Position numbers and translations under genes: made by a program. From positions 1 to 60,488 of the forward strand of contig JAUCBJ010006657.1 in the NCBI GenBank assembly GCA_032718475.1: a DNA stretch of 60,488 nt, read 5' to 3'. Below the pieces are notes generated by a model. That model was not told the DNA's origin and ran no database searches. It saw only the letters and a program-made list of their open reading frames with translations. Below, one piece after another: positions 8,885 to 51,871 of the stretch; the stretch's first letter is position 1, and each line of letters opens with the position of its first letter. The DNA comes from Nemertoderma westbladi. Lineage: Eukaryota; Animalia; Xenacoelomorpha.

Positions 8885-10192
8885 ATTAATCGGATCAGGG
8901 ATCCCATTGAGAGACTGCTCCGTGGAAATTAGAATGGGTTCCGTAAAGGTCGTGGGACCATGGAGCCCATTTTGGCACTTAGAAGGATAATTTAAGAATT
9001 ATCAAAAAAGAAAGACAGGCATCTGGCTGTTATCTTTGTTGACTTCTTCAAGGCCTTTGATTCAGTCTCTCGCTCACGTATGTTCGGCATACTTTCATTA
9101 TATGGGATTCCTGATGAAATTATTGCAGCAATCAGATCAGTATACGATGGTTCGACAACATTTGTGTCTACTGTTGACGGTGACACATAACCATTTGAAG
9201 TGTTATGGGGCGTCCTCCAGGGAGACACACTTGCACCATTCTTGTTCATAATTGTTGTTGACTATGTTCTACGCATGTCCTTAGATCATCATAATGATGA
9301 TGGGGTGGTGATAACTCCACCTACTGGCTCCAGAAGTCGAGGAAATCCTGCCAAGTACCTAACTGATCTAGACTTTGCTGATGACTTAGGAGTACTCTCA
9401 GAATCACTAGAGGGAGCCCAACGGCTCCTCAGCTCATTAGAACATGCTGCTTCTAGTGTTGGTCTTTTTATTAACTCCAGAAAGAGCAAAATTTTGACAG
9501 TTAACTTTGAAAGTCCTCAGCAAGTCTCTGATCGGATGAGCATAAGCTCAAAAGATGGTATGCTTGATGTGGATGACTTCTGTTACCTGGGATCATGGAT
9601 CCGGAAGTCAGGTGAGGACCTTCGAATACGTAAGGGAAAGGCATGGGCAGCCTTAAATAGGCTTTCCAGGATTTGGAAGTCACCGAGAATTAATCGGAAA
9701 CTTAAGGTCCGATTATTTAGAGCAGCAGTAGTTCCCAGTACTCCTCTACGGGAGTCCATGCTGGGCTCTAACTGCTGAGGACACCAAATCTCTGGATGGC
9801 ACATTCACAAGAATGCTACTCCGGGTTCATTGTATCAAGTACAATGCACACATCTCCAACCAGACACTATATAACATTGGAGGTGTTTCATTGGTTCCCC
9901 CAAGCTTGACACTAGAACAAAATCGCCTCCGCTTTGCAGGACATTGCTTTCGCCGTGAGGACCAGCCAGTGCATAATCTTGTACTTTGGCACCCTCATGG
10001 AGTGAATAAGCATGGTGGACAGCCCATGACTTTCTTGAGACGCATCTTAAAGGACACTGGCCTTGAAGATGCGGATGATCTAGCAAATGTCATGGGTGAT
10101 AGGGAGTTGTGGCGATGCAATTTTGTCGATAAGCCGGCACAGCATTCTTAAAAATGCAGCTGCAATGCAGCATGCCGATCCTAGTAGTAGTA
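8885..10192 (+). mobile_element. 5'-truncated RTE-clade LINE with (TAG)n tail and 42-bp flanking direct repeat
   Basis: RT motifs VDFFKAFDS, GVLQGDTLAPFLF, DLDFADD, FCYLGS and RLRFAGHC; tail CTAGTAGTAGTA. Identical GGCTGCCAGCCGGGTACCAACGGCTGTTGGGTAGACTTAAGG at 8843-8884 and 10193-10234. Confidence 0.88.
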
Positions 10193-18280: not shown

Positions 18281-20044
18281 CATACTGACCAGCTGACATA
18301 GGAAAGGAACCCAACCCTATACAAGACAACTTTACCCAGTTTCTGAGTTTATAGGCCTAGCCTACCTTTTTATAGGATATAAATTATTTTTGTCTTTTTT
18401 GGTACCGTACCGTGCCGATAATTATTTTAGGTAAATTATTGTGTTTTTGTGTTTTTGTTTGGTACCGGTAATTTTGTGTTTTTTGGGTAATTCGTAGGAC
18501 CGATCAGCCGATCTTAACTGAACTCTATCTATCCAGCTACAGAGCCATTTTATGATCGCGTGGGATGATATCTGATATCGGAGCGGATACCGTATTCTAT
18601 TTCTGTATTTATGATCAACAATCAATGACAGACAGCTGCCACATGGCTGCTGAGTAGAGGAGCGGCCTTCATCATTCATCTACTGATCGATATTGGAGGA
18701 TATGGCCCGCCCCCTGCTGCCTTGCCTCACCTCAAGCTGTCAAGTGTCAAGCGAAGAAGCAACCAACACAAAGGAATTACATAATAATGTAAACAGCGGT
18801 ACCGGTACCGGTAAGTGCTGAAGTGAGATGTTAAAAAATCTATAGTACAATAGTAGGCACTATACAGCCATTCCATCCACTCATTTTACAATGATATAAG
18901 AATAATATTTATTAGTTGTCCTTCCTAATTGGAAGCCCAGGAATGTCGCCACTAGACCATGCGGGGGCGGGCGGCTGCTTGAAAATAACAACTACCGGTA
19001 GTTGAGGTAAATTGCGGTTAGTTGCGGTTTTTAGTAGGACCGTTATTTTTTGGGGGGTTCCGGACCGGTAGGTAATAATTCAAATTCGTAAATTTGCAAT
19101 ATTTTGGGGTAAACAAAATTTCTAAAACAGGCTCAAAGGCAAGTATTTCTGTATTTTGGGGTAATTCAGTAATTGTAAACTATTTTGGGGTGATTTCAGA
19201 TTTTATACTATGTTGAGGTAATTCGTAGGACCGTCTAATTTATTATTAAACTATCAGAAGTATTTTATTTTCTGAATTTAAACGAAACTCTAACTTATTG
19301 TATTTGTTATATGCGATATTGTTGGAAAACATCAATCCAAAAAACGTCGTATTGCAGTATTTGTAAGCCTATCGTATTTCAGTATGTAAGGTTTTATTTT
19401 TTAAGATTTATTACATGTATTACGTTTTCTGAGCCGGGGGGGGGGGGGGGGGGGGGGGGTGGGGGGGAGGGGGACTGGATGCAAAACCCGCCTTGGCGAA
19501 TTAATATTCCGCCTCAATGTTAAATTCTCAATTTAGAGAAAGGAGCAGGTTACAGTGGCACGTTATTTTAACCAAAACAATAAACTAAACACAAGTTACA
19601 GTTTAATTTTTGAGAGTTATCACCTATTATTTGCGTCGAATTTCCCCTGGAAAGGGATTAATTTTTATTGAGTCCAGTTCCCCCCCCCCCCCCCCCCCCC
19701 CCTCGCCCCCTATCTGCGTTTTCTAGGGTCGTTCGAAATACCGGTACCCTAATATCGACTAATATGGGGCACTAGTGTCAAAAACTGAAATAGGGGACCC
19801 TCCTAATCTGCTAACTGATGAAACCACCTATGCTAATCCTGAAATTTAGCAGGTGATAACAATATTCCTAACTCTCGTTTATTGTTTTGGTTCCTTTCAA
19901 CTCGCCTCTGTAACCTGATCCTTTACTAACCGGGCACTAGTGACTTCAGTTTAGGTGATTTCAGGATTAGCAGGTTAGGAGGGTCCCCTATTTGACACAA
20001 GTGCCTAATATGGACTAATAATATAGGCCTACAGTTTTATACAC

Positions 20045-20330: not shown

Positions 20331-21593
20331 AATTTTCGCATATTGCTACGGAAACTAGCTACAATTATTTTCGTATAATTTTAAATAAATGTTCTATAAA
20401 TGTTGTATAATACCATTTTTACCGATAATTAAACTATTTTTTAGATATTGCTTTGATACGGGATTCTAGAAAATATGTTATAGTTTATTAATACAATTTA
20501 ATGTATTATTATCCTATGGTATAGAAAATATACCGATCTTGCTACGGTTTCTTTCACATGTAGCTAATTCTCAAATCGTATCTCAGAGAAACTGCAATAT
20601 ATCCCCGTTAAGAAAAACTACCATCTCAATAAGATTGACAGAGTGGCACTTTAAATAATTCTACACGAGTATTCGTGAGAAATATAACTCTTATTAGAAA
20701 CCGCCATCACCAAAAGCCATGCTAGCATCATTAAATTAGATAGAAACAGCATGAAAAATAAAGATATCTTTTCGTTGTTTACCATCTAATTAATTTTATT
20801 AAATTTTAGTGTAGTAAAATTCAAGGAAATGCATTTAAATGCTATGTAAGGTGGGATTAAAAATCACTAGGAAAAATTGAATCTGCGTGTTATATTAGCC
20901 TGACAACAAATTGGGAGATAGTTTTTATTTCAGACATTTCACTCCCTAGCAGCAGACTGGAGAACTGAGACTGTTCGTCATCCTCAACAAAGACACTGCC
21001 TATTATGGTGTAGTACATCTCTTCCAAGTATCAGCAAAAAACATAAACAACGAAAATGGTTTTCACTTTCATTGGGAATTGCAAATTGGTCAGAGTCCTC
21101 CCCAAACACGCAGTCTATGGTGTAGCAAACCTCTCGCAAGTATCAACTTAAAAGCATTATTAATAAAGAAATGGGAGAAGGTTGTCACTTTCAGACATAG
21201 TGAAATCGTATCCTGGTTAAAACGTACCCGAACAAAAACATATCCGAATGCGAATATACTGGGTACGTTTTAACAATGATGCATTGGGTACGTTTTAGTA
21301 GTACAAAAATAAATAGTAAAAATAAACTAACCTGCGCTATTAACTCGTTTGTTGTTTTGGTTAGATTAATTCGTTACTGTATCCTGCTCGTTTCCTTTTA
21401 AATCTCCGATACTAATGATATTGATTGGTTGTATGAAGTTTTGTTAGGATGACTATAATGTATTGTGGTTCAAGTTAAAACGTATTCAAAATATGGTTAC
21501 GATATTGATCGGGTACATTTTAACCGAGGTAAGTTTTGACCTGTAACCCTTAGAACAGACTGTGTCTTCTTTTACATATACGAATATCAAAAT

Positions 21594-21800
21594 ATGCATA
21601 ATATAATGCATAATGCATAATATAATGCATAATATAATGCATAATATAATGCATAATGCATAATATAATGCATAATGCATAATATAATGCATAATATAAT
21701 GCATAATATAATGCATAATATAATGCATAATGCATAATATAATGCATAATATAATGCATAATATAATGCATAATGCATATAATATAATGCATAATGCAAA
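21594..21800. repeat. Simple satellite (ATAATGC / ATAATATAATGC)n
   Basis: Directly visible tandem 7/12-bp units; source of the spurious YALY/CIIL ORFs. Confidence 0.95.
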
Positions 21801-22094
21801 TATCACTCAAGCAAATGCATAAAACTTGCCTCTAGTTCGCAATGGTTTACGTGCTCATGATGAGAGCTTTCAATCGGTGTATAATTGGCTCCGATTGAGG
21901 CTCGTGTGTCGAAACGTAGAGCTTGGAAGGACTTACTTCCTCACTCACTCACATACAGACAAATACATATTTGTATATAATTATATATTCGATAATTTCT
22001 AGTTTAGTTGTATCAGTGCATGGCTGTAATTTAATAAAACGTTTTTTTTTTAATTTTTTTTTAGATTCCCAACCAAATGTGAAAACCTAAAGCA

Positions 22095-25000
22095 ATGTCT
22101 GATCAATTTATTGACATCTCCAGTGGCCATAATGATCTTGACATGCCAGTACAGCTTCCATATAAATGTTCTTTGTGTAGTAAAGCATTTTCATCTCTTC
22201 GTGGACTTAGTCTTCACAAACGCCGTTCGATGAAGTGTGCTACACTGTCTAATCAGACCCTGATGTCTAATCAATCTGGAGAAGCAGCTGATAGTATTGA
22301 TGAGAGACCTCTCTCTCTTAATTGTTATGTGTGTAATGCTGTATTTACCAGTGTCCGTGGACTTAATGTTCACCATCAGAGATCTGACATATGTGCAAAG
22401 GCTCAGTATAACCTGACAAAGATTAAAAAGCGGACATATTCCGAATTTAAACAGAAAGAGCAAGCAGTGGACACAGAGGCTGGGAGTAGAAAACGAACAT
22501 GTCCTCAATTTCGACTGGTTGAACAGTCTAAAGATACAGCAGCTAGACGGGAGAAACGTGTCTCATCTCCAGTTCGACTGATTGAACAGTCTAAAAATAC
22601 AGCAGCTAGACGGGAGAAACGTGTCTCATCTCCAGTTCGACTGATTGAACAGTCTAAAAATACAGCAGCTAGACGGGAGAAACGTGTCTCATCTCCAGTT
22701 CGACTGATTGAACAGTCTAAAAATACAGCAGCTAGACGGGAGAAACGTGTCTCATCTCCAGTTCGACTGATTGAACAGTCTAAAGATACAGCAGCTAGAC
22801 GGGAGAAACGTGTCTCATCTCAAGTTCGACTGATTGAACAGTCTAAAGATACAGCAGCTAGACGGGAGAAACGTGTCTCATCTCAAGTTCGACTGGTTGA
22901 ACAGTCTAAAGATACAGCAGCTAGACGGGAGAAACGTGTCTCATCTCAAGTTCGACTGGTTGAACAGTCTAAAGATACAGCAGCTAGACAGGAAAAACGT
23001 CACACATCTGAAGTTCGGCTGGTGGAACAGTCAAAAAATACTGCTTATAGACGAGAGAGACGGACCCTTTCAGTAAGACAGGATACATCCTCTGTTAATG
23101 AGCAGAACACAAATATACCACAGAGTTTCACATCTGCTGAAGAACCAGAACAAAGCTGTAGTTCTCAGGACAATGTACCTCATCAAAGGAGTAGAAGTCG
23201 CAAAAAGCCACCTGTTAAAATTCCTGTGTCTAGTTCTGATAGAGTTAAGTATTCTTCCAGGTGTGAGCTATACAAAGAACTTGAAAATGAAGTCAAGTTC
23301 TTGAAGAATACTCTCCATAATTGGGGAGTTCCAAAGTGCCACAAGGATATTGATAATGTTTTAAGTGGGATTGATTCTAAAAATGATGAAGAAGCAACTA
23401 TTTTTAAAACTGTTGTTTATCCTCCAATTAAGAAAGCATCTGAGAGAATGCAACTACCACTATGGTCCTGGGATCAAAGAGAACGTAAACATACCCAATA
23501 TTTGATTGAAACTGAACAGCTAGATGTTCAAAAAATGCGTCAACAGGATACTGAGTATGTAACGCAGGTTATGGATGATTGTGTCTTCAAATATTCATCA
23601 GGTTGGCAGCTGAAACAATGTTCTATGTGCCATGAAGTTACCATACGATTGGGGGTAGAGTTATTGAGTGGTGACTGCCTAAAATGTAAATTGGCTTCGG
23701 CGAGACGATCAAAAGCTGCTTCAAAGACATCACGCCAGGATGTTGCCCTTCAAGTAACATTATCTCCTAACGAGTTCAATAAAAGTATAGGAAAATTGCC
23801 TAAGTGTACAGCCTCAGAAAGATGTATGATTGCTAAGCAGCAAGCTTTCACAAGTGTGAAGTTTGATTTTATACGACGTCATCGTTTTGCATGCCACAGC
23901 ATTGTTGTAAGCCACAACTTGAAACAGACCATAGAAAATATGATACCACATACTGAATATGCTGATCATGTTGTTGTTGTAGCTAAAGATGTTAGTGGTG
24001 AACACATTCGCCGGATGAAAGTACGAAGTGATGTTGTTCGAATGTGGGCGCAACATCTACTAAGTAACAGATCTAGTTATAGGAAGATTATAAGCAATGA
24101 TAAGTTACTTGACAGTTTGCAAAGTGGAATTTACAACAGCCATTGTGAAAGACCATTGGGTATTGATCAGTTAACATGTGAGTCGGAGATCATCAATGAT
24201 GTACAGCACGATATGTATGCCCAGTCTGATAGTGCAGCACACCAAATGTTCCGAGTTGGCGATAACCTGAATGGTTACATTCAAACTGGCATTAGAGAAG
24301 CAGTACAAAAGCAGCTACGTGGTACTCGACATGATATAGAAATATCTGGGATGTGGAATGAAAAGGTGTCTTCTCATAACTGGAAACTACAAGAACAATT
24401 TCCAGATCTTCATGCTGACGGTCAGAAATCAATCACTGATATTCTGTTCTATGAAGATGACGATGGAAATACTCGACGCACTCATTTGGATATTCTTAAA
24501 CGAGCTCTTAGTCACCAGTTAAAGTATGCTGTTGAACAACCTGATGGATCCCATCGATGGCCATATGCAGAAGATGATGTTTATTCTTTTGTTGTATATG
24601 ATCAGTTACATCTTGTGTCTGCTTTTGATGGTATACGATTCTACCTACATAATGAAGGTGAGATAGATAATTTGAGCACAGATGAACTCCTCAAGGCGTT
24701 TAAGAATGGGCATCCTGAAACAGTTGCTCCTCTTTTAATAGCCCATTTACGAAGATACCCTCATTCAACAGAGAGGTGGAAACAGATAAGGTATGAATTG
24801 AATTCCTTGTGTATGTCAGCTGGATTTCCGAATCTATTTATCACATTCAATAATAACCTGAGAACTGATTATGGAGTGCGGCGAATTGTATATCTATCAG
24901 AATATGGCATTAACAAAATGTTTAATCCCACTTGGTTTGTAAAGAGAGACACTTGGAACAAACTATTAGATAAACATGCAGCTTTAGTTGAGCAATACCT

Positions 25001-28000
25001 ATATTTTAAGGTTGAGTTGATGTCAAGGACTTTCTTTCAGAAAGTATTAGGAGTTGATATTTCTACAGGATGGTACTGGGGTAGATCTGAATGGGGTCCA
25101 TCACGAGCTGTGCAGCACTGGCATTTCTTGGTGCGTATTGCCCAGGTACTTGAGCCAATATTGTTGGCTCACCTGGTCCACAGAGCTCGCTGTATAAAAG
25201 AGTACTGGTCTGCTGGAAAGATGGTAGAGAACTATAGGGATGAGGCTATTAGAATTCTGCGTGTCGGCCAGCTTGCTGAAACATACCTGAGAAATTTGTT
25301 TGATAGCTTAATTACAACAGACTTCATTGATACTTCTGGGAACCCAGTTAATTTGGACGAGCTACTGCGCAATCATAATCTACTTCCTGAGGAACAACAG
25401 TACAGCCCTGAGCATCATCCACTGATGCGTGATCCTGTGAATCAACCAGACCTTTGTGAACCGAAATGGTTTGATCAAGCAGTTCAGGCTGCTCTCGCTC
25501 AAGTTCACAAGTGCATTCCTGAGAATTGTGGTGGGAATCCCCAGGGAATTGGCTGTCGTCATGGTGGGATAAAGCCTCTCAGAGATTCAACTAAAGTAGG
25601 TTTCACAAAGTCCTCATCTACCATGGACTACACAGAGTGTCGGGTGCTTACAAAACGGAGCCACAAGTCATTCACTCGTCTAAATAATATAAATCCAATC
25701 TTACAGCGGTATTGGCGTGCCAACACAGATACAACTGTAATTTGTTGTGCTTTTACAGTCATCAGATATGCAGTCAAATATGCTGCGAAGTCAACATCTA
25801 GATTGTCTTGTATTGACGAGGTTGTGAGTAAATTAATGGAGCTTACAGAGAGCCAACCAGATGTGTCAATTCACAGCATTGTTCGTCGGTTGGCTATAGC
25901 ACATGCTTTCAATCCTGTTGATATGAGTAGACGGCAGCTACTTTTTCATGCTCTCCAGTTGCCTGATGTTATCAAATGCATGCCACGCATAATTTCATTG
26001 AAGTGCAGCCAAAGTGCTCCTATTCTTGCTAATGTTTCAAGAGTTTCAACTGATTCTAGCATGTTACATGTTGAGGAATGCATAGATGATATTGATAATG
26101 ATACTGATGATTTTAGTGACAACAGTGATGTGGAAGATGATAGGTTACCATCACAGACCAATGTATGTGAGAGAAGAGAGAATGTTGAAGCCAATGAAGA
26201 CATTTATAATGTTAAGAGTTTATTTATAGTTCCACCAAAATCAGCATTAAATTCTTACATTCAACGAAACAATTACTCAAATTGGCCAACTGAAAAAGTT
26301 GGTTGCATCGAAAATATTAGTTACTTTGATTATTTGTTATCGGTAAATCTTGTGTATAGAAAGGCACAACTGGAGTATATTCATCAGTCAGTCTCTCATA
26401 GATATCCACGAGTGCCTCATATTGTTCCTCAAATGGTAACTGATAGACCAGAATCTATTGTATTAGATCAAGGCACAACTTGGGGTAACCTACATCGAGA
26501 AACAAGGCAAGCTCTACAGAATCTGCGCATGGAATGCTTATCATTCATTCCATTTACATCCACTGAATTATTTATTAGTAAGGATCTTGCAGAATCCATT
26601 AAATGTGGTGAAAGTGATGTAATATGTGCCTATAAACAATTTCAAGACATATGGGTTAATAATTTGAAAGAGAGAAGTCTTCCAACCATAAATCGTATAG
26701 CAATTATCAATAATCAGTTACAACCATACAATGATCCTTGTTTTAGATTCAGGATCTTCCAGAACACATATAAATCTGAAATTGATCACAATAGACATAT
26801 CTTGTCAATTCGATCAGAATTTAATTGTGTACCCTTGGATATTGATCATAGTAGTCAAATGGACTCTGCTTCAGACAGTTTATTCGACCCAACTCTTGTT
26901 GATTTGGATGTAGAGAAAGTTTCTATTAATTTACTTCTTGCTGATGAGATTAATGTTGAGTGTTTCATTCAACCAGATCGATTATTGTCATCTTTTGTTG
27001 AGGAGACAGACAACAAATGTATTGAGTCTGTTGTATATATTAACGTTAAAGAAGCAACCTATGATTTCATGCTTAAACGTTGGAAACTCTTACGGTTATC
27101 ATCAAAGACGTTTAAGGGTGGTCCTAAGAAACCCAGGTCTGATTTGAAACAGTTAAATACACAACAACAACTTGCAGTAGACATGATGACCTTGAATACA
27201 GTAAATGGCAAACCATCAGTTAAAACATTACTACTTACTGGATTGCCAGGATCTGGTAAATCGGAGGTAATTAAACAGATACATTACCATCTTGGTGTGG
27301 AAAAGGTTTTACTTCTTGGTACCAGTGGTGTTGCTGCTGCAAATTTAAACTGTGCAACATTTGAGGGTTTTTTTGGTATTTATCAAAATAAAACTCAGTG
27401 GGACCACCATAAATTGTCAGATCGACAAACGCTGATTAAAGAACTCATTGGTGGTGTTGAAGGGGTGATTCTTGATGAAATATCAATGGCTGGTGCCAAT
27501 ACGTTGGCTCTTCTAGACTCTTCATTACGTCATGCGACTGGAAATGAACAGCTATTTGGCAGTAGAAAAGTCATGCTTGTTGGTGATTTTGCACAATTGC
27601 CGCCAGTACATTCTAAGCCTATTTGGGATAGACCAACAAACTTAGCTTCAGACAGGCCAACAAATCATCATATTCAAACATCCAGAGCAGTGGCCCAGAT
27701 TGGTTTTCAGATTTATCGAAACAATTTTCGAAAGAATGTAATTTGCCTTGATAAAGTCTACCGATACGACGATGAATTGAGTACAATTATTAACAACATT
27801 CGTAATGGTACACAAACTGAAAGAGATTACGATGAGTTGTTTAAGTCCATGAATAAACTTGGCATGGTTCCCAACCGGGCTACTCTTGGTGAGAAAGTCA
27901 TAAGCTTAATGTATGATAACCATCCACGAATGTTAAGAAATGCCATTGAATGCATGGATGAAGTATCAGAGCTAAACATTGATATATATTTATCAATTGC

Positions 28001-30278
28001 CAAATATAATTGCGACAATTCAAACTTCAGTAAATTGGGTCCGAATGAATTCAATACCATGTTAGAACATGTTATCCCTTTATATATTGGCATGGAAATA
28101 ATGTTTGTTGATAATATCAGTGTGCAGAAACGTGTGGTTAATGGAGGTCGCGGTATTGTCAAACAAGTGGTATATAATGAAGATGATCTAGAGTTTTTGT
28201 TAGGTCGGAAAGAACACCCACAACCCAACCATATTGTAGTTGATGTGTATGACCTCGATACAGACAGTGAACCATTACCTGAATTTCCAGACAACCCCAC
28301 ATGGGTTAGAATATTCCCCATAAGATCATATTTAAAACAGGCACGAAAACGTCATCATAAGTTTGCTGAAAATGTAGCACGTTTTAACCTTCCTGTTGTC
28401 CCAGTTCATGCAATAACTGTGCATAAATCTCAGAGTAATCAATATCCAGGCTCTCCAGTATATATTAATGTAAAAGCGGATGAGATTGCTCAAGGAAATT
28501 TGGCCTTGGCAAACCAATTATTAACAACAGCCGCATCTCGAGCAGATAGTTGCAAGAACCTTTTTGTGGAGCCTTTTTCACTGGAGACGTTTTTGAAGCT
28601 TGGTACTTCAAAAATGGATGTTAAGAGGCGAACTGAGGAAAATGAGCTTCTTACAAACTCAAAATCATTTTTACATAAATATGTCAGTAACATATCAAAA
28701 AAAGCAGTATCTGTGTCAACAACCGTTCATTCAAATGTTGTGGGGGGTGTGGGCCTGCCAGAACCAAGACATCAACCCAATCAAGTGATAACACGATCAG
28801 TTGGCATTGACCCGGGAACAGAAAACATGGGCATTGCTATTTGGCACAAAGAACCCCGATCAGCACCACTCTTGATATTTTGTGCAAAGGTGACACTTTG
28901 TAGTGCTGTAGACCGATCAACCAACAGTTCAAAGCTAATTGATATTATACTGAAGTCTGAACCAAGATTATTGCCATTTCTAACAACCAGAAATCCACAT
29001 GATAGCCCATATATTCCATCTTGTTCCATCTTAGCTGTAGTAGTGGAACAATTTCCATCTTATGCATCACTACGTTGGATGACAAAGAGTATCGTCGATG
29101 GTCTTCGTATCTTTGTTAATAACTGCTCACCATTTCGTCTCGAAAATAACACTCTAAAGGTGCATCATAATTCTGGGTTTTTGCTACATGCATCGCGGGG
29201 ACCTCTAGCTTATTTACCGAAGCTAGTGAAGGGTCTTCATATTACGCTTTATTTAAGAAGACCAACTTATGCTGATCAATTCAGTGATATACAACAACAG
29301 GAAAGAGCTAGAACTGCAGATAGAATTAACAGAAAACAACAATCAGCAAAATTAGCCAGATCAGTTCTTTCTGGAGAGTCAATGAAATTTTCAAATGAAT
29401 TGCAAGTTTCAGAAAGTGTAATAGACGAATTTAAAGATCTGGTTTTATCGAAGGCAGATGATTTTGGTGATGCTATGTTACATGGATTGTATGAACTGTT
29501 GATTCTTCGAATTGAATCCATGCATGCATCCCACTTTGTAGAGATGCATAGACAACAAACGTTGTTTCAAATTGGCAGTATTCGTTTGGTTGTCATTTCA
29601 CCAGGTCCAAAGTGGACTTTGTTAACCATCATGAGATGGAATGCCGTAAATTCCACAGTTATAGAAAGACTTATTCTTAAACGAACTCCTTATGATAAAT
29701 TTAAAGTTCCACTTGAGAATGCCAAGTTGTTTAGTGACAATGTAACTGTAGATGAACGAGTTATCGCTTGGCAGAACGAATTATCAGAACAGCTGTTAAC
29801 TAGTATTCGGTCACTAACTAACTCTGAAAGGTTTGGTTTTACAGCAACCAAGTTCGTTTTGATTCTAATGCGAAATTTACATCCTCGCGCACCAATGCAA
29901 CGATTTCTAACCAAGGATATGAAGACTCTATTCTCGCCAGCTAGAAACATCGAGGATGTTTTCTTCAAGACATTCAACGGTGTGCCCAACATCTGGCACA
30001 TGATTGGATCTGGAGAATCACGTTTCCTTCATGAAGCATGGGAAATTGTTCCAGAATTAATTACCAGAGTACAAGGTTACATCACTATCCGAGAGAAAGT
30101 CGAGGCATGTTTAGAGCTCATCACAGATGACACAACTTTCAGTAACCTCGAATTCACTCAACAATCTAAAACTGATATCGACCAGTTTCGTGAATGGGCT
30201 ATCCAAAAACGTATGATGGAAACCATTATACTTGGGCTTCATGCGTTGAAGAAACAAAAACATTTGAAGCTCCGATAA
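22095..30278 (+). CDS. Helitron-like (Helitron2/Helentron-type) Rep-helicase transposase with C-terminal RuvC/A22-like resolvase
   Basis: Uninterrupted 2727 aa. Two N-terminal C2H2-like fingers; DUF6570-like segment (LPKCTASERCMIA…VRSDVVRMWAQHLLSNRSSY). Rep motifs PNLFITF, EWGPSRAVQHWHFL (HUH) and YAVKY. Pif1 motifs GLPGSGKS, LDEISM, GDFAQLPPV, AITVHKSQ and AASR. C-terminal GIDPG…VVEQ…RKQQS…KADDFGDA. Confidence 0.9.
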   Translation: MSDQFIDISSGHNDLDMPVQLPYKCSLCSKAFSSLRGLSLHKRRSMKCATLSNQTLMSNQSGEAADSIDERPLSLNCYVCNAVFTSVRGLNVHHQRSDICAKAQYNLTKIKKRTYSEFKQKEQAVDTEAGSRKRTCPQFRLVEQSKDTAARREKRVSSPVRLIEQSKNTAARREKRVSSPVRLIEQSKNTAARREKRVSSPVRLIEQSKNTAARREKRVSSPVRLIEQSKDTAARREKRVSSQVRLIEQSKDTAARREKRVSSQVRLVEQSKDTAARREKRVSSQVRLVEQSKDTAARQEKRHTSEVRLVEQSKNTAYRRERRTLSVRQDTSSVNEQNTNIPQSFTSAEEPEQSCSSQDNVPHQRSRSRKKPPVKIPVSSSDRVKYSSRCELYKELENEVKFLKNTLHNWGVPKCHKDIDNVLSGIDSKNDEEATIFKTVVYPPIKKASERMQLPLWSWDQRERKHTQYLIETEQLDVQKMRQQDTEYVTQVMDDCVFKYSSGWQLKQCSMCHEVTIRLGVELLSGDCLKCKLASARRSKAASKTSRQDVALQVTLSPNEFNKSIGKLPKCTASERCMIAKQQAFTSVKFDFIRRHRFACHSIVVSHNLKQTIENMIPHTEYADHVVVVAKDVSGEHIRRMKVRSDVVRMWAQHLLSNRSSYRKIISNDKLLDSLQSGIYNSHCERPLGIDQLTCESEIINDVQHDMYAQSDSAAHQMFRVGDNLNGYIQTGIREAVQKQLRGTRHDIEISGMWNEKVSSHNWKLQEQFPDLHADGQKSITDILFYEDDDGNTRRTHLDILKRALSHQLKYAVEQPDGSHRWPYAEDDVYSFVVYDQLHLVSAFDGIRFYLHNEGEIDNLSTDELLKAFKNGHPETVAPLLIAHLRRYPHSTERWKQIRYELNSLCMSAGFPNLFITFNNNLRTDYGVRRIVYLSEYGINKMFNPTWFVKRDTWNKLLDKHAALVEQYLYFKVELMSRTFFQKVLGVDISTGWYWGRSEWGPSRAVQHWHFLVRIAQVLEPILLAHLVHRARCIKEYWSAGKMVENYRDEAIRILRVGQLAETYLRNLFDSLITTDFIDTSGNPVNLDELLRNHNLLPEEQQYSPEHHPLMRDPVNQPDLCEPKWFDQAVQAALAQVHKCIPENCGGNPQGIGCRHGGIKPLRDSTKVGFTKSSSTMDYTECRVLTKRSHKSFTRLNNINPILQRYWRANTDTTVICCAFTVIRYAVKYAAKSTSRLSCIDEVVSKLMELTESQPDVSIHSIVRRLAIAHAFNPVDMSRRQLLFHALQLPDVIKCMPRIISLKCSQSAPILANVSRVSTDSSMLHVEECIDDIDNDTDDFSDNSDVEDDRLPSQTNVCERRENVEANEDIYNVKSLFIVPPKSALNSYIQRNNYSNWPTEKVGCIENISYFDYLLSVNLVYRKAQLEYIHQSVSHRYPRVPHIVPQMVTDRPESIVLDQGTTWGNLHRETRQALQNLRMECLSFIPFTSTELFISKDLAESIKCGESDVICAYKQFQDIWVNNLKERSLPTINRIAIINNQLQPYNDPCFRFRIFQNTYKSEIDHNRHILSIRSEFNCVPLDIDHSSQMDSASDSLFDPTLVDLDVEKVSINLLLADEINVECFIQPDRLLSSFVEETDNKCIESVVYINVKEATYDFMLKRWKLLRLSSKTFKGGPKKPRSDLKQLNTQQQLAVDMMTLNTVNGKPSVKTLLLTGLPGSGKSEVIKQIHYHLGVEKVLLLGTSGVAAANLNCATFEGFFGIYQNKTQWDHHKLSDRQTLIKELIGGVEGVILDEISMAGANTLALLDSSLRHATGNEQLFGSRKVMLVGDFAQLPPVHSKPIWDRPTNLASDRPTNHHIQTSRAVAQIGFQIYRNNFRKNVICLDKVYRYDDELSTIINNIRNGTQTERDYDELFKSMNKLGMVPNRATLGEKVISLMYDNHPRMLRNAIECMDEVSELNIDIYLSIAKYNCDNSNFSKLGPNEFNTMLEHVIPLYIGMEIMFVDNISVQKRVVNGGRGIVKQVVYNEDDLEFLLGRKEHPQPNHIVVDVYDLDTDSEPLPEFPDNPTWVRIFPIRSYLKQARKRHHKFAENVARFNLPVVPVHAITVHKSQSNQYPGSPVYINVKADEIAQGNLALANQLLTTAASRADSCKNLFVEPFSLETFLKLGTSKMDVKRRTEENELLTNSKSFLHKYVSNISKKAVSVSTTVHSNVVGGVGLPEPRHQPNQVITRSVGIDPGTENMGIAIWHKEPRSAPLLIFCAKVTLCSAVDRSTNSSKLIDIILKSEPRLLPFLTTRNPHDSPYIPSCSILAVVVEQFPSYASLRWMTKSIVDGLRIFVNNCSPFRLENNTLKVHHNSGFLLHASRGPLAYLPKLVKGLHITLYLRRPTYADQFSDIQQQERARTADRINRKQQSAKLARSVLSGESMKFSNELQVSESVIDEFKDLVLSKADDFGDAMLHGLYELLILRIESMHASHFVEMHRQQTLFQIGSIRLVVISPGPKWTLLTIMRWNAVNSTVIERLILKRTPYDKFKVPLENAKLFSDNVTVDERVIAWQNELSEQLLTSIRSLTNSERFGFTATKFVLILMRNLHPRAPMQRFLTKDMKTLFSPARNIEDVFFKTFNGVPNIWHMIGSGESRFLHEAWEIVPELITRVQGYITIREKVEACLELITDDTTFSNLEFTQQSKTDIDQFREWAIQKRMMETIILGLHALKKQKHLKLR
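22512..23062 (+). repeat. 63-bp coding minisatellite, ~9 copies (RLIEQSKDTAARREKRVSSPV)
   Basis: Near-identical in-frame 63-bp units in the RepHel N-terminus. Confidence 0.95.
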
Positions 30279-33267
30279 TATACACTTTTATACGTTCTAC
30301 GTCGCCCTTAATTGGTACCGAGTTTAGCTTTATACATGAGAAAACTGATGGGATAGTCCTTCTAGAACGCATTATTCCTCTTGCGCGTTGTCATGGTGAC
30401 GACTACTTAATATTAGAAACTTAAAGTATTTTATCAATTCCGTATGTGTACTATTAATATCTCTTGGATGGATAAATAAAGACATTATTATTATATCTAT
30501 TTTTGCTTTATGTTTATTGTTATTTATATTCTAATTTATAAACTAATTTAGTTTTGGAACTTGTCATCAGTTTTTAAGCGTATTGGATCCTTTTTTTGTC
30601 CTTTTTTTCCATTGTTTTTTCTTTTCTTTTTTCGGAAAATTCACTCTGCTGTTACATGTTGTAGCAGGTGTCAATTCACTACAACAACTGTTGTCAACAA
30701 ATTAATGCAAATCTAATAATTGGTCATTGTTAATTTGTATTGTTCTGGGGTAATATCAACTCTTCTTATATTTTCAGTGTTTATATGGGACTAACAAAAC
30801 TGCAGTAGTAATTACATTGTTGTACTTTTAAATGTTCATAATTTTCTATTGTTCTATAGCTACCATTTATCAATTTAAATTAATTACACTTTATTTGAAC
30901 CAACTACAGCATCTATAATTGGCGTTGGGTTCATTCATTCACAATTTTAGCATTCCCGTTGATATCAAGTTTCCTTTCCCTCTTTCCGCATTTCCCTATT
31001 TTAATTAATTTACTTATGATCTCTTGCTGGTAATTTAAAACAGTGCTCTTCTTAAAGGGGATTCTATTCAACAACGCTAAAACACCTACACAACTTATTT
31101 AAATATTTCAAAGCACATTTCCTAGCTCTTTTTTTTTTTTGGAAATATCAATTCCTTTTAATACTTCTTTTGAACCTTGTTTTATCCTTATTTTCTTGCC
31201 TTGGAGTGCGTCTTATCCTTTTTTTACTTATTTTAAAATATCCATTCCTTTTTTTTCTCAATTTTTTTTGGCTGGGAGGGCTGCAACATAGTCACGGAGT
31301 GTTGTAGGCCGTCAATATAGACCTGTCTACAGAATCTCATTGTCTAAGAGGCGGTTCGTTATTATTATTTCTAAATTTTGTAAAGGGCTGGGAGAAGGCG
31401 TTCTAGAATGCTTTGGAAATTTAATATAGGAAACCACTGAAAATCGGAATGCATTCTAGAAGCTTTGAAGGGAACCACACATATAGGGAACAGTAGCCTA
31501 TAGAACTTGTATCTATGGTACACTCTCATTTGTGCAATCGTTTCATCTGCGTTAATTATATTATGTTTTGATTTTAAATCAACATTTAATACAATGATTA
31601 ATTCGATGATTATAATATACAATACATATCTATTTACATGCATTTACATTCATGTAATTAAATTAAAATGTCAATGGAAAATGCCATATAAAGTAAGTTG
31701 CTATTAAAAATGCATTTCTATCGGCAGATCTCTTCAGATTCGATGTTTAGCTATTGACGTTGTTTTTGTTTAAATAACTTTTTGATATGTTGATATTTCG
31801 TATATACTGTAACCTGCTCCTTTCCCTTAATTAATAATTAATATTGCTAATTTATCAGAGACAAGATATTAATTCGCCGAGATGGGCTTAAGAATACAAT
31901 TAAGTATTACGTTGTTAACTCCGTATAACATTTAATTCCATTACTGCTACTGGTCATAAAATATAATTTGCGTGTGGCCTTCCAGAAGCTAAGATAAAAG
32001 CAGTTAATTAAGCTTTAATTAAGTTATACGGTAAAAAAATATCATATTTCTGCCTGCCCTGTAATGGTAATTAATTATTTTATAGTATAATATATAAATA
32101 ATTATACAGCTGTAATCCCCATACGCCATTCCATTATAGTTTTTAATTAGTTCAAGTGATTTGCTTTAAGAAATGTGTTTTTAATTTAATAAACGTAGCA
32201 TAATCCATCATTCCATGGCGTGCTTGCTCTTGCCGGTGGTGCTGAGAATCAGTCCAACCAGTTCCACTTCACCACTACTCCAGGAAAGTGTAATTGCATC
32301 TATAGGACATGCAATAGTGTTAGGCGTTTAGGCCCCATACTAATAAGACAGCTTGCTTATTGTTTATCTCGCAAAATGATTGGCTGATTATTTAGAATAA
32401 CGATACGACTTGAATATATTATTTAAAAAAAAACAATTTTCTGTTAATACCTGCATGTCATCAACCGCATCTGTGTGCCTTTGGGTTGGGATGGTGCAGA
32501 TTAAAAGGGGGTTGAAAGCGATCAACTTTCCCCTCGCCCTCGATGATTTATTTGCGGTTTGGTTAATTTCTTAAAAAAATATATAGATTTTGTGATACAA
32601 TTGCTCAACTTTAATATAATCTCATAACTGAGCCTCGTGCTGCGCGAAGGCCCCACGAACGTGTCCTAAGGACGTATATATACGTCCTGGTGTTTATTGC
32701 TGCCAATGGGGATGATTCAAGTTTAGGTTATTCTAGCAGTGTTTATCCATTGCTTAGGACAGTATACTACCCGTTTTAGTTAAAAAAGTGATCGGAGTTT
32801 GAGTTAGAGGTTGGAATTCAACCAATCAGTGATGAGCTCCTTTTCAGAGACAGCAGGCTGCTTATTGAAAGCAGATTGATTGTACCTTGTACTGTACAGT
32901 AGGATATGGCAGAGGTTTGAATGAGTAGCCCTTGAGAATTCCAACCAATCAGAGTTTATTTCCCTGTCAAGCTTGACACTGTAATAATCTACTTTGTAAA
33001 TAAATAAATACATGACTGAAAAGTGAAAAGTGAAATCATGGTATTCTTCATATTGGTGAATTACGTAATTGTATTTCGTAAATAAAATAATGGGAATGAT
33101 GATTGTTCCTGTACTAGCATCCTGGTGGATTATTGTGGTAATTCTGCAATAATGAAGCTATATTGCATTTTAGTATTACAATAATTATTCATTTATATTT
33201 ATCATTCATTTATAGTTTATATCCAGGGCTCTGCCTTGATAAATGCTTTGCAGATTATCATTGCCAA

Positions 33268-34978: not shown

Positions 34979-37077
34979 TTACTGATTCTCCACGCTGTGC
35001 TGGTTGCGTTTATGGGTCGATAGATTCGATGTTTGGGAGAACGCTTTACCACAAGTATCACAGATGTAGGGTTTATCTCCTGTGTGGATACGTTGGTGGG
35101 TTTTTAGATCGGAACTCCTGGTGAATGATTTACTACAGACGTTACAACTGTAGGGTTTATCTCCTGTGTGGATACGTTGGTGGGTTGTTAGATAGGAACT
35201 TGTGGTGAATGATTTACTACAAACGTTACAAATGTAGGGTTTATCTCCAGTGTGGATACGTTGGTGGGTTGTAAGATGGGAACTGTTGGCGAATGATTTA
35301 CTACAGACGTTACAACTGTAGGGTTTATCTCCTGTGTGGATGCGTTGGTGGGTTGTAAGATGGGAACTGTTGGTGAATGATTTACTGCAGACGTTACAAC
35401 TGTAGGGTTTATCTCCTGTGTGAGTACGATTGTGTTGTATTAGAGAGCCGTTCTCTGAGAAAGCTTTGTTGCACATAATACATTGGAACGGTTTCTCACC
35501 AGAGTGAGTGCGTTGGTGGCGTGTTAGATGGGACTGTGTGCTGAAACCTTTACTACATGTAGAGCAGCTGAACGGTTTCTCCCCGGAATGAGTGCGTCGG
35601 TGGGTTGTTAGACTGGACTGTCGGCTGAAAGCTTTACTACATGTAGAGCAGCTGAACGGTTTCTCGCCTGAGTGAACCCGTTCGTGCTCCATTAGTTGGG
35701 ATTTATATCCAAACACTTTCCCACAAGAACTACATCCCAAACAATCAACAGGTTTATCTAAACTGGAACGTTCCTTAGGACCAGTAGGAACGTTGGAACC
35801 CGAACCTGTTGGAGTAGAACCGGGTTCCTTGTGTTTCCGTTTTAAATGGGAAACGAGAAAAGATTCCACGGTGTAGACGATGTCGCAATGTTCGCAAGGG
35901 AATTTATGTAAACTCTTATCGTGAACTAAATCTAATCTCTTCCGCTCAGCACATCCACCTCGACTACTTTGGTGTCTAAGAATTGCCTCCTGATTATCGG
36001 ACCGGTAACTTCCACACCCGGTACACAGAATCATCCCGTCTTCCATAACTTTCATCCCCAATATCTTATTCTTTGGTTGTTTGGTAATTAATCCCAATTC
36101 CTCCGCGTATTCCGTTCCGTACCAAACAAGGAGTTCCGTACCGGCTGCAACTGGTTTACAGACCCGATAATACATATCCTCTCTGAACTGGAAAGCACTA
36201 ACTGTTTGTTCCTCCTCCCATTTGGCGCAGTTTACGAAGCGCATCCAATTAGACTTGTACTCCCATCTCCCGCTGACAGTAAAGAATTTACCCACATCGT
36301 CCAACATCAACCAGCTGTAACCGTCAGACTTGCCGGGTTTAGGTTTACCAGGTTTCCTCTCTCCGCCATAAGGGCCAAATAATGTTCCCGGATTCAAGTC
36401 GACCTTGGTAAACACTCCTTTATTATGAATCTGAGATTTCTTTATCTCCAAACACGAGGGAATTGTTCTGCTGCCCCGGTTCCTTCCTCCACGAGTGGTT
36501 TCGGTATTCGGTACGAAGTTAAACTCCCCGTGTACCGGACACTGTAAGTCACTATATTCCTCGCTGCAATGGTCGCAGAATATAAAGTTATTGAATGATT
36601 TTATTGGACAGTTGCGGTTGGCGTAATCGACTTCCTTTCTGGGTCGTAAACCACATCGGGGTTCGAAAGGAGCCGTCGATTTAGGAGAGACGATGACATT
36701 TAAATCCGACTCAACTGTAGAAGAACCCGAAATCTCTTCAACTATTTCTTCTCCCTCGGCTACTGAGGCCGGACTTCCCCCACTAGAAGTCCTTCCCGCT
36801 CCCGAACCAACGCGTCCCAAACTGTTAGCGAGTTTATCGTTAACCGATTCCTCGGCACTCGGTACACATGGACCAACAGTATCCGAGTGTCTACCGGAAC
36901 TGACGTCATCCAACAGATCGATCGCTGTATCAGATCGATCCACATCGGGAATACATTCCAGCTGTCCTTTTATTTCCTCGATGGAATCAGTTGTAACGAT
37001 AAACGATGACGAATTAAAACCTCCTGTTTCCCTGATAATATCGGTCGGAGATAAAGTCACTGAGTTCCCTTCTGCGG
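34979..37077 (-). CDS. PRDM9: PRDM9-like histone methyltransferase, coding exon 2 (SSXRD, Zn knuckle, PR/SET, C2H2 array)
   Basis: SSXRD-like GLRPRKEVDY; knuckle FCDHC…CPVHG; SET with FGPYGG, SNWMRFVNCA, MYYR and ELLVWYGTEY; one post-SET finger plus 9 tandem C2H2 fingers with TGDKP/SGEKP linkers. Predicted acceptor TTTCAG at 37078. Confidence 0.88.
34995..35735 (-). repeat. 84-bp zinc-finger minisatellite
   Basis: Four nearly identical CNVCSKSFxxSSxLxTHQRIH units and two CSTCSKxFSxQSxLTxHxRTH units; variation is concentrated in the recognition helix. Confidence 0.9.
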
Positions 37078-37932
37078 CTGAAAGCGGCCATGTTTAATTA
37101 ATTACTAATTTTATAGAAGTTTTAATTGGTTAATAATATATCCACATATTAAATTCTTATTCATTGATATATTGATTGATTAAATGAATATTAGCATATC
37201 TCGAGATATGCACATTATTTTTGGGAACTTATTTATGATGCAAAATATACCAAATCTCTAGAAGTTTCAAACTTGTTATTATCATGCCGTGTTAATAAAA
37301 GTTAGTGTAATCGCCCACTCTGAGCAAGCAGGTAGTTTCATTTAGGCTATTAACCCTAGCTGGCCCGGGCTAATTTACTACCCGGTACGTAGGCTACAGT
37401 AATTGGCCCGTGGGGGTGGTGGGGAGGTCATTTTAGACAATTTTTAAATCTTTGTCTTAAAAATTCAAATTTTGAATGTATAAGAGTTTTCAAGATCGTT
37501 GATCACGATAATGCTAAAAATATTTTCTGGCGATTCAACCATCATTGTTAGTGTTATTTATAGCAAAATGCCTTTGGTTTGGCAATTCTGAAGCTATACA
37601 GGTGTTCAAGGTCGCTGATCACGATAGATCTCGTTAAAAATCATTCGAGGTAACGCAACAATCGTTTTGTTGAATTTCTCCAAATTAAATTCATATCGAG
37701 AAAAATCATTTTGAAATTACCAATTGAGGGAAAGGAACAGTTTATATAGATTGTACTTTCTAACAAAAATAATAAACGAATATCATTAATTAAATTAATA
37801 AGTAATTCAACAGGACTAAGAATGATCCAACTCTATAGCAAATGGAGCGGAAAAAAATGAATTAATTAAAAATCATTAATTAAAAATTAATAAAAATGAG
37901 TCTAGGTTACAGTGTCAGCATACTACAATATA

Positions 37933-43430: not shown

Positions 43431-46108
43431 ATGGTGGGGCCGACGGTGCGGCCCCGGACGCAGAGAGACGAAGGAGATATCGGTACCGATGTCGCCGGCC
43501 AGCCACAGGCCGAGGGCGACGGACGGCCCGCCGGAACGGCGACGGTGGGGCCGCCAGTACGACGTCGGACCCGGAGAGACGGAAGAGAGATCGGCGACGA
43601 GGACGTCGGGGTTTCTGATCGACTTCGACGGGCCTACAACACGACCCAGAGACTACTAAAGGACGCTAAGAAGGAAGGGGCGAAGATAGACGAGGTGAGA
43701 CTGAGGAAACGACTAGGTGAGTCGGATAGACACTTTAATTACCTAATGCGTTTTGGGCAGAGAGAACTAGCCGAGGAGAGAGCGAAAGGGATTGCCAGTG
43801 ACTATGGGAATGTGGGAGTATGGAACCTAGCGTAGCGTCAGTGTACATAGGGCCATACTTGGTCGATGCCCGGGGAGTAAAATTAGTGGGTTGGAGGGGA
43901 CCAGAAGGAGGCGAATCCGAGGTTAACCCCGAGGATTCGGCCTCATCGGTCGGAGGAAGTTCCGGGAAGCGGGGGAAAGTTAGTAGATCGGGAAGGCGGA
44001 GGGAGTCCGTCGTAACCGATAAGTCTGCTACATCCTCCGCGAAAGAAAGACTGGTGAGAGAGGCAGGTGCCGCGTACCGTCTCGAGCTGATAGAGCAAGG
44101 TCAGAGGGAAATGGATAAACGGCTAGAGGAGGGGAGAATGCGGCTAGAGAGGGAAGCGGCATTGATTAGAGAAACCGGAGAGAAGGCCGAAAGGGCTTTG
44201 AGAAGCCTTAGGGAGTATGATGAAATAGAGTTGAAGGAACAAGAGGAGCGTGTGGCGAGAGAGAAAAGTGAACGCGAGAAACATGAGGTGAGAGAGAAAA
44301 GTGAACGCAAGGAGCGTGAGGCGAAGTGGGAAAGTGAACGAAAGGAACGTGAGGCGGAACGCGAGAAACGTGAGGCGAGGGAGGAAAGTGAACGCAGAGA
44401 GCGTGAAGCGAGACGAAGGGAGAGTGCTAGGAGAGTAGCAGAGTTGGCTGGCCAGGACGCGCGGGAGTGTGAGAGGAGAATGGCAGAAGCTGAGCGAGAG
44501 CAAAAGGAATTAGAGAGACGCCAAAGTGAGCTTTCGGGACACAGGATTAGACGCGCGCATGAGTTGCAAATGGTGCGGGCGGGGGCGTCTGAGAGCGAGA
44601 CTGGCTCGAGTATTTTAGAGGAGCCAGGGGCCGTGGATACATTTATTAATACCCCACTTACAGGGACCGCACGACAGACCCAAAACTGGTGTGACCGTAC
44701 GGGCGGGGGGGGGGGGGTAATAATGATAATGGTACAGTAGACGTGGTTAATATTAATAGTACCGTATGGGATAATTCTAATCAAACCTTTATTGCAGGAA
44801 ATACTTTACCTAGTGGTAGTAATTTAAATTTAAATCAGAACAATCCTAATGTTAATGTAGAAAATAATTCTAATAATGTGGTTATACAAAGTAATCCAAA
44901 TAATTTAAATAATGATCCAAGCCCGAATTTACAAAATAATTCAGATAGTGTAGTCGCGCAAGATAATTCAAATGATTTTATTTCGAACGAACAAATTAAT
45001 TCCGTTTCCAATACGGGTGCTATTAATGTAAACACGTCGGGCGTGTATGGCCAGACAGATGGGGCCCTGGTAGGCCACGTAGTTAGTAGGCCGGAAGTAG
45101 CTGGGTTAGGTAGACCCGGTGAGGGCCTGGTAGGCCACGTAGTTGGTAGGCAGGAAGTGGCTGGGTTAGGTAAACCCGGCGAGGGCCTGGTAGGCCACGT
45201 AGTTGGTAGGCAGGGAGTGGCTGGGTTGGGTAGACCCGGCGAGGGCCTGGTAGGCCACGTAGTTGGTAGGCAGGGAGTGGCTGGGTTGGATGGACCCAGC
45301 GAGGGCCTGGTAGGCCACATAGACGGTAGGCAGGGAGCAGAGGGCCTGGTAGGCCACGCAATAGCAGAGAGAGAGGCGGGGGTGAATAGACCCGACCGCG
45401 GTAGGGTTGATGTGTCGACTAGAGAGGGATATAGTAGCGGGATGAGAGATAGCGAAGTTAGATGTGGCGAGTGGTGGGGGGGGGGGGGGGCTACGAGAGC
45501 CCCACAACAGCGAGTTAGCGGCGAAAGGGGGGGGGGGGCAGAGAGTGTCCCACAGCCGTCAGCGGATAATGCGAGGGCCGAAATAGGTAAACGCAACAAC
45601 CGGCGACGGAAAGTAATAGGGGGATTGCGAGTATCCCCAGCGGCGTGCGACCGAGCAGAGAGAGACAGGTTGACGTCGTGAGAGGGCGGACGAAGCGTCG
45701 AGCCCGATCAGAAGAGGGAAGGAGAACAGGGGTTTAACCGGGAGGTCGACGAGAGATCTCACGAGCGGGAATACTACACTGAAAGGAGAAGAAGAGAAGA
45801 CAGTAGTAGAGGTATCGCCGCGAACGATAGAAGAACGAGGACGGATAGCGAGCTGTCGGTAGTTGAGATGAGGACGGAGAGTCAGTGGGGTCGGACTCCG
45901 GGAGATTGCCGTCGCCCCGGAGAGATGCGACCCGGCGAGGCGCACTACGCGCCGATGGAGGGGTACGCGATGTACCGGTACGAAGACGAGAACATTAGAG
46001 GGGGGGGGTCGAAGAGAAACTTTCCGACGGAATACACCTATCGATCGAGAATACGGTAGCCGCGGGGAGGACTATTCGAGAAGAATAAACTTCGATCCCG
46101 AACAACAC
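43431..46108 (+). pseudogene. N-terminal gag region (coiled coil, Asn-rich and Gly-rich repeats), frameshifted
   Basis: Consecutive ORFs 43431-43835, 43820-44740, 44743-45681 and 45868-46059; several breaks lie near poly-G runs. Confidence 0.6.
45058..45360 (+). repeat. 60-bp coding tandem repeat, ~5 copies (EGLVGHVVGRQGVAGLGRPG)
   Basis: Repeated GGGCCTGGTAGGCCACGTAGTT units at 60-bp period. Confidence 0.92.
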
Positions 46109-51723: not shown

Positions 51724-51871
51724 TAGAGTTAGAGAAATGTTTAGTCGTCCAAGTTTTGGACTGAGGGGGTGGGATTGAGGGCGAGACGCCCTTCCCACAC
51801 AAAAAAATAAAATAAATAAAAAAAAAATAATAGTACATGGTAGGTACGCAGTTAGTAGGCAGAAGTTAGTT

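Follow-up and report, generated by a model that had tools for sequence, protein, structure and literature searches.

A stretch of 60,488 nucleotides from the xenacoelomorph Nemertoderma westbladi (contig JAUCBJ010006657.1 of assembly GCA_032718475.1, positions 1 to 60,488 of the forward strand; hereafter the window) carries a Helitron-like transposon whose transposase continues, beyond its helicase, into a tail of two predicted RuvC-like domains, here named D1 and D2. D1 almost certainly belongs to the RuvC branch and, judging from its motifs and modelled fold, is very probably an active nuclease. We lean towards a reading in which a young HLE2-like transposon, equipped with the D1 nuclease and a likely inactive D2, uses this tail to nick branched DNA left at the insertion site.

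A two-domain RuvC-like tail behind the helicase

The transposase is encoded by a single open reading frame (ORF) on the + strand (stop to stop 22083-30278, 2,731 codons; first Met at 22095), giving a protein of 2,727 aa. This RepHel transposase gene with its two-domain tail (22095..30278, +) is intact and comprises a single exon, and contigs of three runs agree with it except in a repeat region. An HUH Rep (24636..25800, +; Pfam PF14214, Helitron_like_N, E 7.7e-9) with H-W-H at 25116-25124 and two tyrosines at 25767 and 25779 is joined to a Pif1-like superfamily 1B (SF1B) helicase (27150..28682, +; Pfam PIF1, E 8.7e-20; Walker A at 27240, Walker B at 27474), the combination that characterises Helitron-like proteins. 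The tail of ~500 aa comprises D1 (28791..29519, +), a predicted RuvC-fold domain of A22/Ydc2/TEFM type supported by an AlphaFold model, structure matches, HHalign and conservation, and D2 (29580..30254, +), a second predicted RNase H-like domain. No Pfam family was matched in the last 558 residues, Pfam matches being confined to the first 2,200 (zinc fingers, DUF6570, Helitron_like_N and PIF1). An earlier note on this DNA had described a resolvase-like tail here; its motifs are present, but the span that it gave takes in only half of the tail and overlooks D2 (about 29580-30254).

All motifs of D1 were located as that note stated them, namely SVGIDPGTENMG with its D at 28809-28811, AVVVEQ with its E at 29046, DRINRKQQS, and KADDFGDAML at 29451-29480. 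Motifs were compared using the numbering of the fowlpox resolvase, in which the catalytic acids are D7, E60, D132 and D135 and activity also needs N12, Q62, K129 and, less so, R101 (PMC6962361). The predicted catalytic acids of D1 (D/E/D/D) are D 28809, E 29046, D 29460 and D 29469, with accessory residues N 28824, R 29331, K 29334 and K 29451. Counterparts of D7/E60/D132/D135 and of N12/R101/K129 were found at equal local spacing in the window and in all four relatives that span D1 (P0002, P0003, P0004 and P0008), with K replacing R at the R101 equivalent in P0003; P0005 spans the last D1 motifs only and retains those. The window protein and the D1-spanning relatives share 22-45% mutual identity, except for one closer pair (70%). 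Measured against P0002, identity was 41% in D1, 42% in Rep, 44% in the helicase, 33% in the inter-domain linker and 28% in D2.

The AlphaFold model of the tail, built from eight family rows with no A22 or viral sequence in the alignment, had a mean predicted local distance difference test (pLDDT) score of 76.9 and a two-domain predicted template modelling (pTM) score of 0.49; a first fold on two sequences (pLDDT 36) was discarded for D1. When D1 (residues 59-305) was searched against 48,161 PDB representatives, the best matches were TEFM (Z 12.6), the canarypox resolvase (12.0), the herpes terminase nuclease (11.2) and Ydc2 (11.1), followed by phage bIL67 RuvC (10.9), chloroplast MOC1 (10.3) and Thermus thermophilus RuvC (9.6), while Cas12, Cas9 and IscB rows scored under the resolvases at 8.7 or less. 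The canarypox resolvase superposed with 130/130 residues aligned (root-mean-square deviation (rmsd) 2.6, 22% identity). A second structural comparison gave TEFM (Z 13.0), the fowlpox resolvase (VIA, Z 12.9; rmsd 2.8 across 147/148 residues) and Ydc2 (11.9). By E-value, the leading Foldseek matches in PDB were two-lobed ASKHA proteins, which had poor rmsd; RuvC, fowlpox, Ydc2 and TEFM chains came back with a probability of 1.0. The A22/Ydc2-type RuvC fold that had been proposed from the motifs is thus supported by the model and its structure searches, which recovered fowlpox, canarypox, Ydc2 and TEFM. The RNase H-like core of the D1 model, which opens with a three-strand hairpin and continues into a mixed five-strand sheet and C-terminal helices, superposes on solved members of the branch with Z 11.9-13.0, and from this superposition the D/E/D/D residues are predicted to cluster in one site. 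The top named BFVD rows for D1 come from medusavirus and phage PhiEaH1 (E 3e-6 to 4e-6), both being Holliday junction resolvases, and ESM Atlas returned Pox_A22/Ydc2 clusters at 0.84 for the whole tail, which we treat as a lead only. Compared by sequence with PDB and phage sequences, the tail had no meaningful match.

Profile comparison reached the same branch. Giant-virus A22-like proteins were gathered with a short-motif search (120 loci, of which 80 had full flanks and 79 kept the C-terminal motif), and as a control 6/6 of those tested scored above the Pfam cut-off for Pox_A22. The D1 profile aligned colinearly with the 20 shortest giant-virus Pox_A22-type proteins through all four motifs (HHalign score 37.3, E 4e-5, probability 69%); none of 40 column shuffles reached this score (maximum 21.4), and the reversed profile scored 14.2. 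Since the last 558 codons would stay open by chance with p ~2e-17 at local base composition, and since the D1 match lies above all shuffles, we exclude that the tail is a chance product.

The same fusion is conserved in other proteins, which supports the distinct lineage that the earlier note had postulated. A tail word-seeded search of 6,328 candidate proteins (1,502-4,780 aa) gave one match, P0002, an incomplete RepHel that carries this tail as well (34% identity over 98% of the tail). An HMMER search of 1.84 billion representatives added five further relatives (P0003-P0007), among which P0004 starts within the helicase end, P0005-P0007 are pieces, and P0003 may be truncated because it starts at the first D1 motif on a 2-kb contig. 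Searching with Rep and helicase but without the tail, we recovered one protein among 5,347 candidates, P0008 (3,006 aa, 27% RepHel identity), which ends in the same tail (GIDQG, LEQ, RKRMS, KFDDLGDA). Both near-full-length relatives found (P0002 and P0008) therefore bear the tail, P0008 having been found without the tail as query; Rep motifs are retained in both, and the helicase-tail join is in frame in P0002, P0008 and P0004. As the searches were seed-limited and the collections are poor in eukaryotic genes, these numbers do not amount to a census. DNA scans of viral contigs, prokaryote genomes and metagenomes yielded no relatives; two matches were dropped as antisense to a bacterial gene in L121. 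One loose-ended contig from run X1 matches across the KxDDxxD motif only, with family-like sequence on both sides, hinting at a diverged paralogue within that genome. At the N-terminus of P0008 (residues about 20-150), a motif was seen by eye that resembles what we take to be the pattern of OTU-like cysteine proteases, with no Pfam match.

D2 was found in 7/7 relatives that extend to it (P0002-P0008). In the model its strand and helix order is identical to that of D1, but S, R and M stand at the D1 acid positions: VVISPG replaces the VGIDPG of D1, the fourth strand ends in R, and the last helix carries M and E. A D1-D2 profile alignment ran colinearly through 202 columns with a weak score (19.7, E 0.058; 0/40 shuffles, maximum 16.9). 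Structural matches to D2 were generic RNase H-like ones (CasPhi RuvC, Z 7.2), as were those in the low-confidence first model (pLDDT 36; RNase H-like/ASKHA rows, Z 7-8, up to 8.6), and ESM Atlas gave nothing above 0.79 with D2. D2 is likely a duplicated, inactivated copy of the D1 fold. Prediction of a D1-D2 complex scored 0.00 in two runs, in which the alignment was unused and the partner fold uncertain, and we read it neither for nor against pairing.

The element, its copies and its extent

In three runs from two studies, one contig each crosses the helicase-D1 junction in frame: X1 26933-30758 (0 differences; this run may be where the window comes from), X2 27612-30758 and X3 26644-30765, where X2 and X3 come from one sample and X1 from the other study. 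In the second sample, the element has a 17-nt insertion at 26536, causing a frameshift between Rep and helicase, and a 21-nt deletion, and one run of that sample has a stop at 29787, within D2. Among the differences listed (40 of 137), at least 27 are coding and 18 alter the protein, mostly in the Rep-helicase linker, whereas 5/6 in the helicase are silent. Of the block beyond position 21550, run X5 from another study contained no more than 386 nt (library type not known). What these observations fit is a transposon that was active until recently and whose copies are decaying, rather than a host gene; because the other copies in the species are broken, we regard the intact one as young. The intact frame had been put down to youth or selection, and it is youth that the 17-nt insertion and the stop support; we do not adopt the selection alternative.

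The candidate extent of the element is a low-copy block (21549..31835), which stands out by its lower depth from the high-copy repeats on either side; at 31835 the contigs of three runs stop. Ratios of element to flank depth differed between two runs of one sample and were not taken as copy number. At these candidate ends, no GC-rich hairpin and no empty site were found. An imperfect inverted repeat (21576-21595 / 31785-31805; 19/21) is a weak candidate for the termini and was not accepted as such: it beats 1,998/2,000 shuffles, but an AT-rich segment without relation to the element, at 7141, does equally well. An AT-rich satellite of 12- and 7-nt units occupies 21594-21800, just within the candidate left end. 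The high-copy terminal motif of an inverted-repeat element is common to 19515-19590, 19875-19930, 21345-21394, 31806-31835 and 37715-37744, and the low-copy Helitron block ends exactly at one copy of it.

Upstream of Rep, the protein has two C2H2 zinc fingers (22161..22391, +; by sequence and by two stretches matching Pfam zf-C2H2_4, E 2.6e-4, under the curated cut-off), tandem basic repeats of 63-nt (21-aa) units found by repeat analysis (22504..23070, +), and a DUF6570 domain (23793..24104, +). DUF6570 is specific to HLE2 (PMC11417382). Its match in the window is marginal (24.4 bits in the N-terminal piece against a cut-off of 24.3; 22.4 in the whole protein), and in P0008 it is under the cut-off (21.2 bits, E 4e-4). 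Because of this domain, the sequence points to an HLE2-like element. A polypyrimidine tract (22045-22066) ends in TTTAG ~29 nt 5' of the ATG and resembles a splice acceptor of a 5' untranslated region. Further loose-ended contigs, some several-fold deeper, match only Rep and helicase motifs (24825, 25964-25987, 27302-27403 and 28010-28590), which suggests further diverged families of the RepHel lineage in the same species.

Possible roles of the tail in transposition

Helraiser, an HLE1 element, cuts and transfers the plus strand only, yet integrates via double-stranded intermediates as donors and circles (PMC5876387). By analogy, we think on balance that D1 would act on the element's own integration intermediate. 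Rep would nick and transfer one transposon strand while the helicase peels that strand off, as in Helraiser. The opposite target strand would stay uncut, leaving the insert looped out between branch points, and D1, placed behind the helicase, would then cut the opposite strand at the branch, so that host polymerase and ligase could complete the insertion. The poxvirus resolvase cuts Y-shaped DNA and both sides of bulges, leaving plain duplex and single strands uncut (PMC3439875). Resolvases with the fold of D1 are homodimers (PMC6962361). In the transposase, D2 could replace the second subunit, giving a monomeric enzyme with one active site, which would nick branches as a single chain where a resolvase makes two cuts. 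Helraiser, going by the title of Kosek 2021, is reportedly monomeric. That D2 serves as an intramolecular dimer partner of D1 seems to us somewhat doubtful. We hold with more doubt still that an undescribed, old rolling-circle lineage turned a dimeric Holliday-junction resolvase into a helicase-wired, one-site branch nickase with an active D1 and a dead D2.

Several observations weigh against this reading. The position two residues after the catalytic E, equivalent to Q62, is F or I in the family, the motif reading E-Q-F, E-S-F or E-Q-I where A22 has E-x-Q; mutation of Q62 strongly cuts the activity of the fowlpox resolvase (PMC6962361), and E-x-Q is present in 79/79 of the giant-virus A22-like proteins. 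None of the eight alignment members matched a Pfam resolvase family at E up to 10, all falling short of the Pox_A22 and Ydc2-catalyt thresholds. On account of both the E-x-Q motif and the Pfam thresholds, we keep D1 outside Pfam Pox_A22; the sequences and model make it likely that D1 is a separate family within the A22/Ydc2/TEFM branch that works like A22. The best structural match is to TEFM, a resolvase-like protein that works as a transcription factor and is not known to be a nuclease, and the herpes terminase nuclease is near; the fold alone therefore gives no function, and the activity of D1 is a prediction from sequence and model. Regarding D2, its homology to D1 is weak (HHalign probability 1%), its match to the A22 profile is no better than that of shuffles (8/40 reach the score), and packing of D1 against D2 is not predicted, given a low-confidence linker and the two-domain pTM of 0.49. 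Finally, the near-full-length relatives found number only two, and Helraiser transposes without such a tail, so the domain is not essential to the superfamily.

The nuclease might instead act before strand transfer, opening or selecting the target by nicking forks, cruciforms or branched host DNA to supply a single-stranded target or the first nick. D1 sits in the C-terminal slot of the apurinic/apyrimidinic (AP) endonuclease of Helentrons, which has been hypothesised to nick the target (PMC4067079); moreover, HUH enzymes require single-stranded DNA (PMC5876387) and the poxvirus resolvase has a broad branch specificity (PMC6962361). However, because A22-type enzymes spare plain duplex and single-stranded DNA (PMC3439875), target opening would need a pre-existing branch; we consider it unlikely. 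Quite improbable, in our estimate, is that the tail acts on replicating transposon circles, resolving concatemers or the junctions between circles in the way that poxvirus A22 resolves genome concatemers. Such resolution is the known job of A22 (PMC6962361), and Helraiser circles replicate and are reused (PMC5876387). Yet a two-tyrosine HUH enzyme makes precise end-to-end circles unaided (PMC5876387), no hairpin or long inverted repeats able to extrude a cruciform were found at the candidate ends, and a design with one active site would suit nicking better than paired cuts. Of the two mechanisms offered in the earlier note, strand-transfer heteroduplexes or concatemeric circles, the second is the weaker, since HUH and helicase suffice for the precise circles of Helraiser (PMC5876387).

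A non-cutting role has also to be weighed, in which D1 and D2 clamp branched DNA, much as TEFM serves mitochondrial RNA polymerase, and make the helicase more processive or protect the fork. TEFM being the top structural match (Z 12.6-13.0), the retention of an acid-less D2 in 7/7 relatives extending to it, and the absence of the E+2 glutamine all speak for a clamp; but the four metal-binding acids together with N, K and K are invariant down to 22% identity, which binding alone would not need, and we judge a clamp very improbable. Hardly credible is an accidental fusion, whether by reading through into an insertion of unrelated DNA or by assembly error, or a domesticated host gene. The low depth of the block and the splice-acceptor-like site before the ATG would agree with it, whereas independent relatives carry this tail in frame, contigs of two studies cross the junction, and the GC content at third codon positions does not set D1 (0.26) apart from the helicase (0.29) or the linker (0.26). 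Also against it stand the frameshifting insertion and the stop in other copies of the species, and the bare 386 nt in X5, so that accident and domestication are already largely refuted.

Comparison with known systems, surroundings and significance

The nicking tail proposed here can be set beside several known systems. Helentrons, the HLE2 elements whose transposase ends in an AP endonuclease (PMC4067079, PMC11417382), likewise combine RepHel and DUF6570 with a nuclease in frame after the helicase; the OTU-like motif of P0008 is a further resemblance, and D1 indeed occupies the slot of that endonuclease (PMC4067079), as had been noticed. Their nuclease is Exo_endo_phos, whereas the window has a RuvC fold and an acid-less second domain, a very divergent RepHel and ends that are only candidates; no Exo_endo_phos match was found in the window protein or the eight family members, which leaves the element outside the Helentrons in the strict sense. 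HelenSM92 (PMC11417382) also pairs a nuclease other than the AP endonuclease (GIY-YIG) with an HLE2-like RepHel, but the fold is unrelated to D1. SLX1, of GIY-YIG type, is a branch nickase, as D1 would be. Helraiser (HLE1, PDB 7lcc) shares the two-tyrosine HUH Rep and Pif1 helicase and has no C-terminal nuclease; compared with it, the window RepHel gave no phmmer match at E 0.001, and only the helicase region matched by profile (E 5.5e-11). Another RuvC-fold nuclease, Fanzor1, is carried by Helitron2 elements (PMC10530073, PMC3627910). Fanzors, however, are RNA-guided TnpB homologues with their own ORF and a split RuvC, while D1 is a compact, contiguous resolvase-type domain within the transposase, and no TnpB-family Pfam match was found in the window protein or the eight family members.

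Among resolvases, those of poxviruses (A22) and giant viruses (fowlpox Fpr, PDB 6p7a and 6p7b; canarypox, 5e6f) resemble D1 in fold and in the series D, D+5 N, E, RK and K-x2-D-x2-D, but are free homodimers of ~150 aa, whereas D1 spans ~240 aa with insertions, lacks E-x-Q and a Pfam Pox_A22 match, and is fused to a transposase and D2. The mitochondrial proteins Ydc2/Cce1 and TEFM (PDB 1kcf, 5ol8) match D1 as well as the poxvirus enzymes do, with longer alignments (180-184 residues, Z 11.9-13.0), though with 11-12% identity only; they also differ in that D1 belongs to a nuclear transposon and TEFM is a transcription factor. Poxvirus chains have the higher identity to D1 (17-22%, against 11-12% for the mitochondrial ones). 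As TEFM (13.0), the fowlpox resolvase (12.9) and Ydc2 (11.9) lie within about 1 Z unit, capture of D1 from a large DNA virus, which the earlier note had raised, is not established. Identities near 20%, and a giant-virus set biased by the motif used to gather it, would be a poor basis for a tree of its origin.

A RepHel-resolvase fusion, of which that note knew no description, likewise did not turn up in the full-text literature that could be searched, judged mostly by titles and the opening of abstracts; Repbase and subscription journals fall outside it, so a catalogue entry may exist. Neither 'RuvC' nor 'resolvase' occurs in the available text of PMC11417382 (including one supplement file), PMC13085455, PMC11934779 or PMC8788227.

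Elsewhere in the window, an uninterrupted, intron-free 704-codon frame (34979-37093, −) encodes a PR/SET domain and about ten C2H2 fingers, resembling PRDM7/9, and summed read depth is high across its finger end. ORFs of a Pao/BEL-type long terminal repeat retrotransposon (DUF1759, protease, reverse transcriptase, Peptidase_A17 and integrase zinc finger) extend over about 43800-55500 (+), split by a stop at 49708 and by further breaks, and reverse transcriptase fragments are located at 5709-7064 (−) and 9191-9778 (+). A non-coding repeat of 1.4-2.3 kb is present in three copies (1553-2988, 57067-59056 and 59345-60488; 86-98% identity).

What the nucleases that Helitrons have captured do 'has not been determined' (PMC8788227), and how Helitrons, which cut one strand, complete a double-stranded insertion is a standing question on which D1 bears. 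The substrate class of resolvase-type enzymes, branched DNA, is narrow and well studied, which together with the intact copy brings the question within reach of point mutants and simple assays on oligonucleotides. That the tail is invisible to Pfam would explain its absence from a Pfam-based survey of 404 genomes, and more such lineages may be hidden. A tandem of active and dead RuvC domains would be a new architecture for the resolvase family. If the more doubtful reading of an old lineage with a one-site branch nickase is true, the tail would represent a third unrelated nuclease in the same C-terminal slot, after the AP endonuclease and GIY-YIG, and second-strand cutting at the target would be the missing step of Helitron integration.

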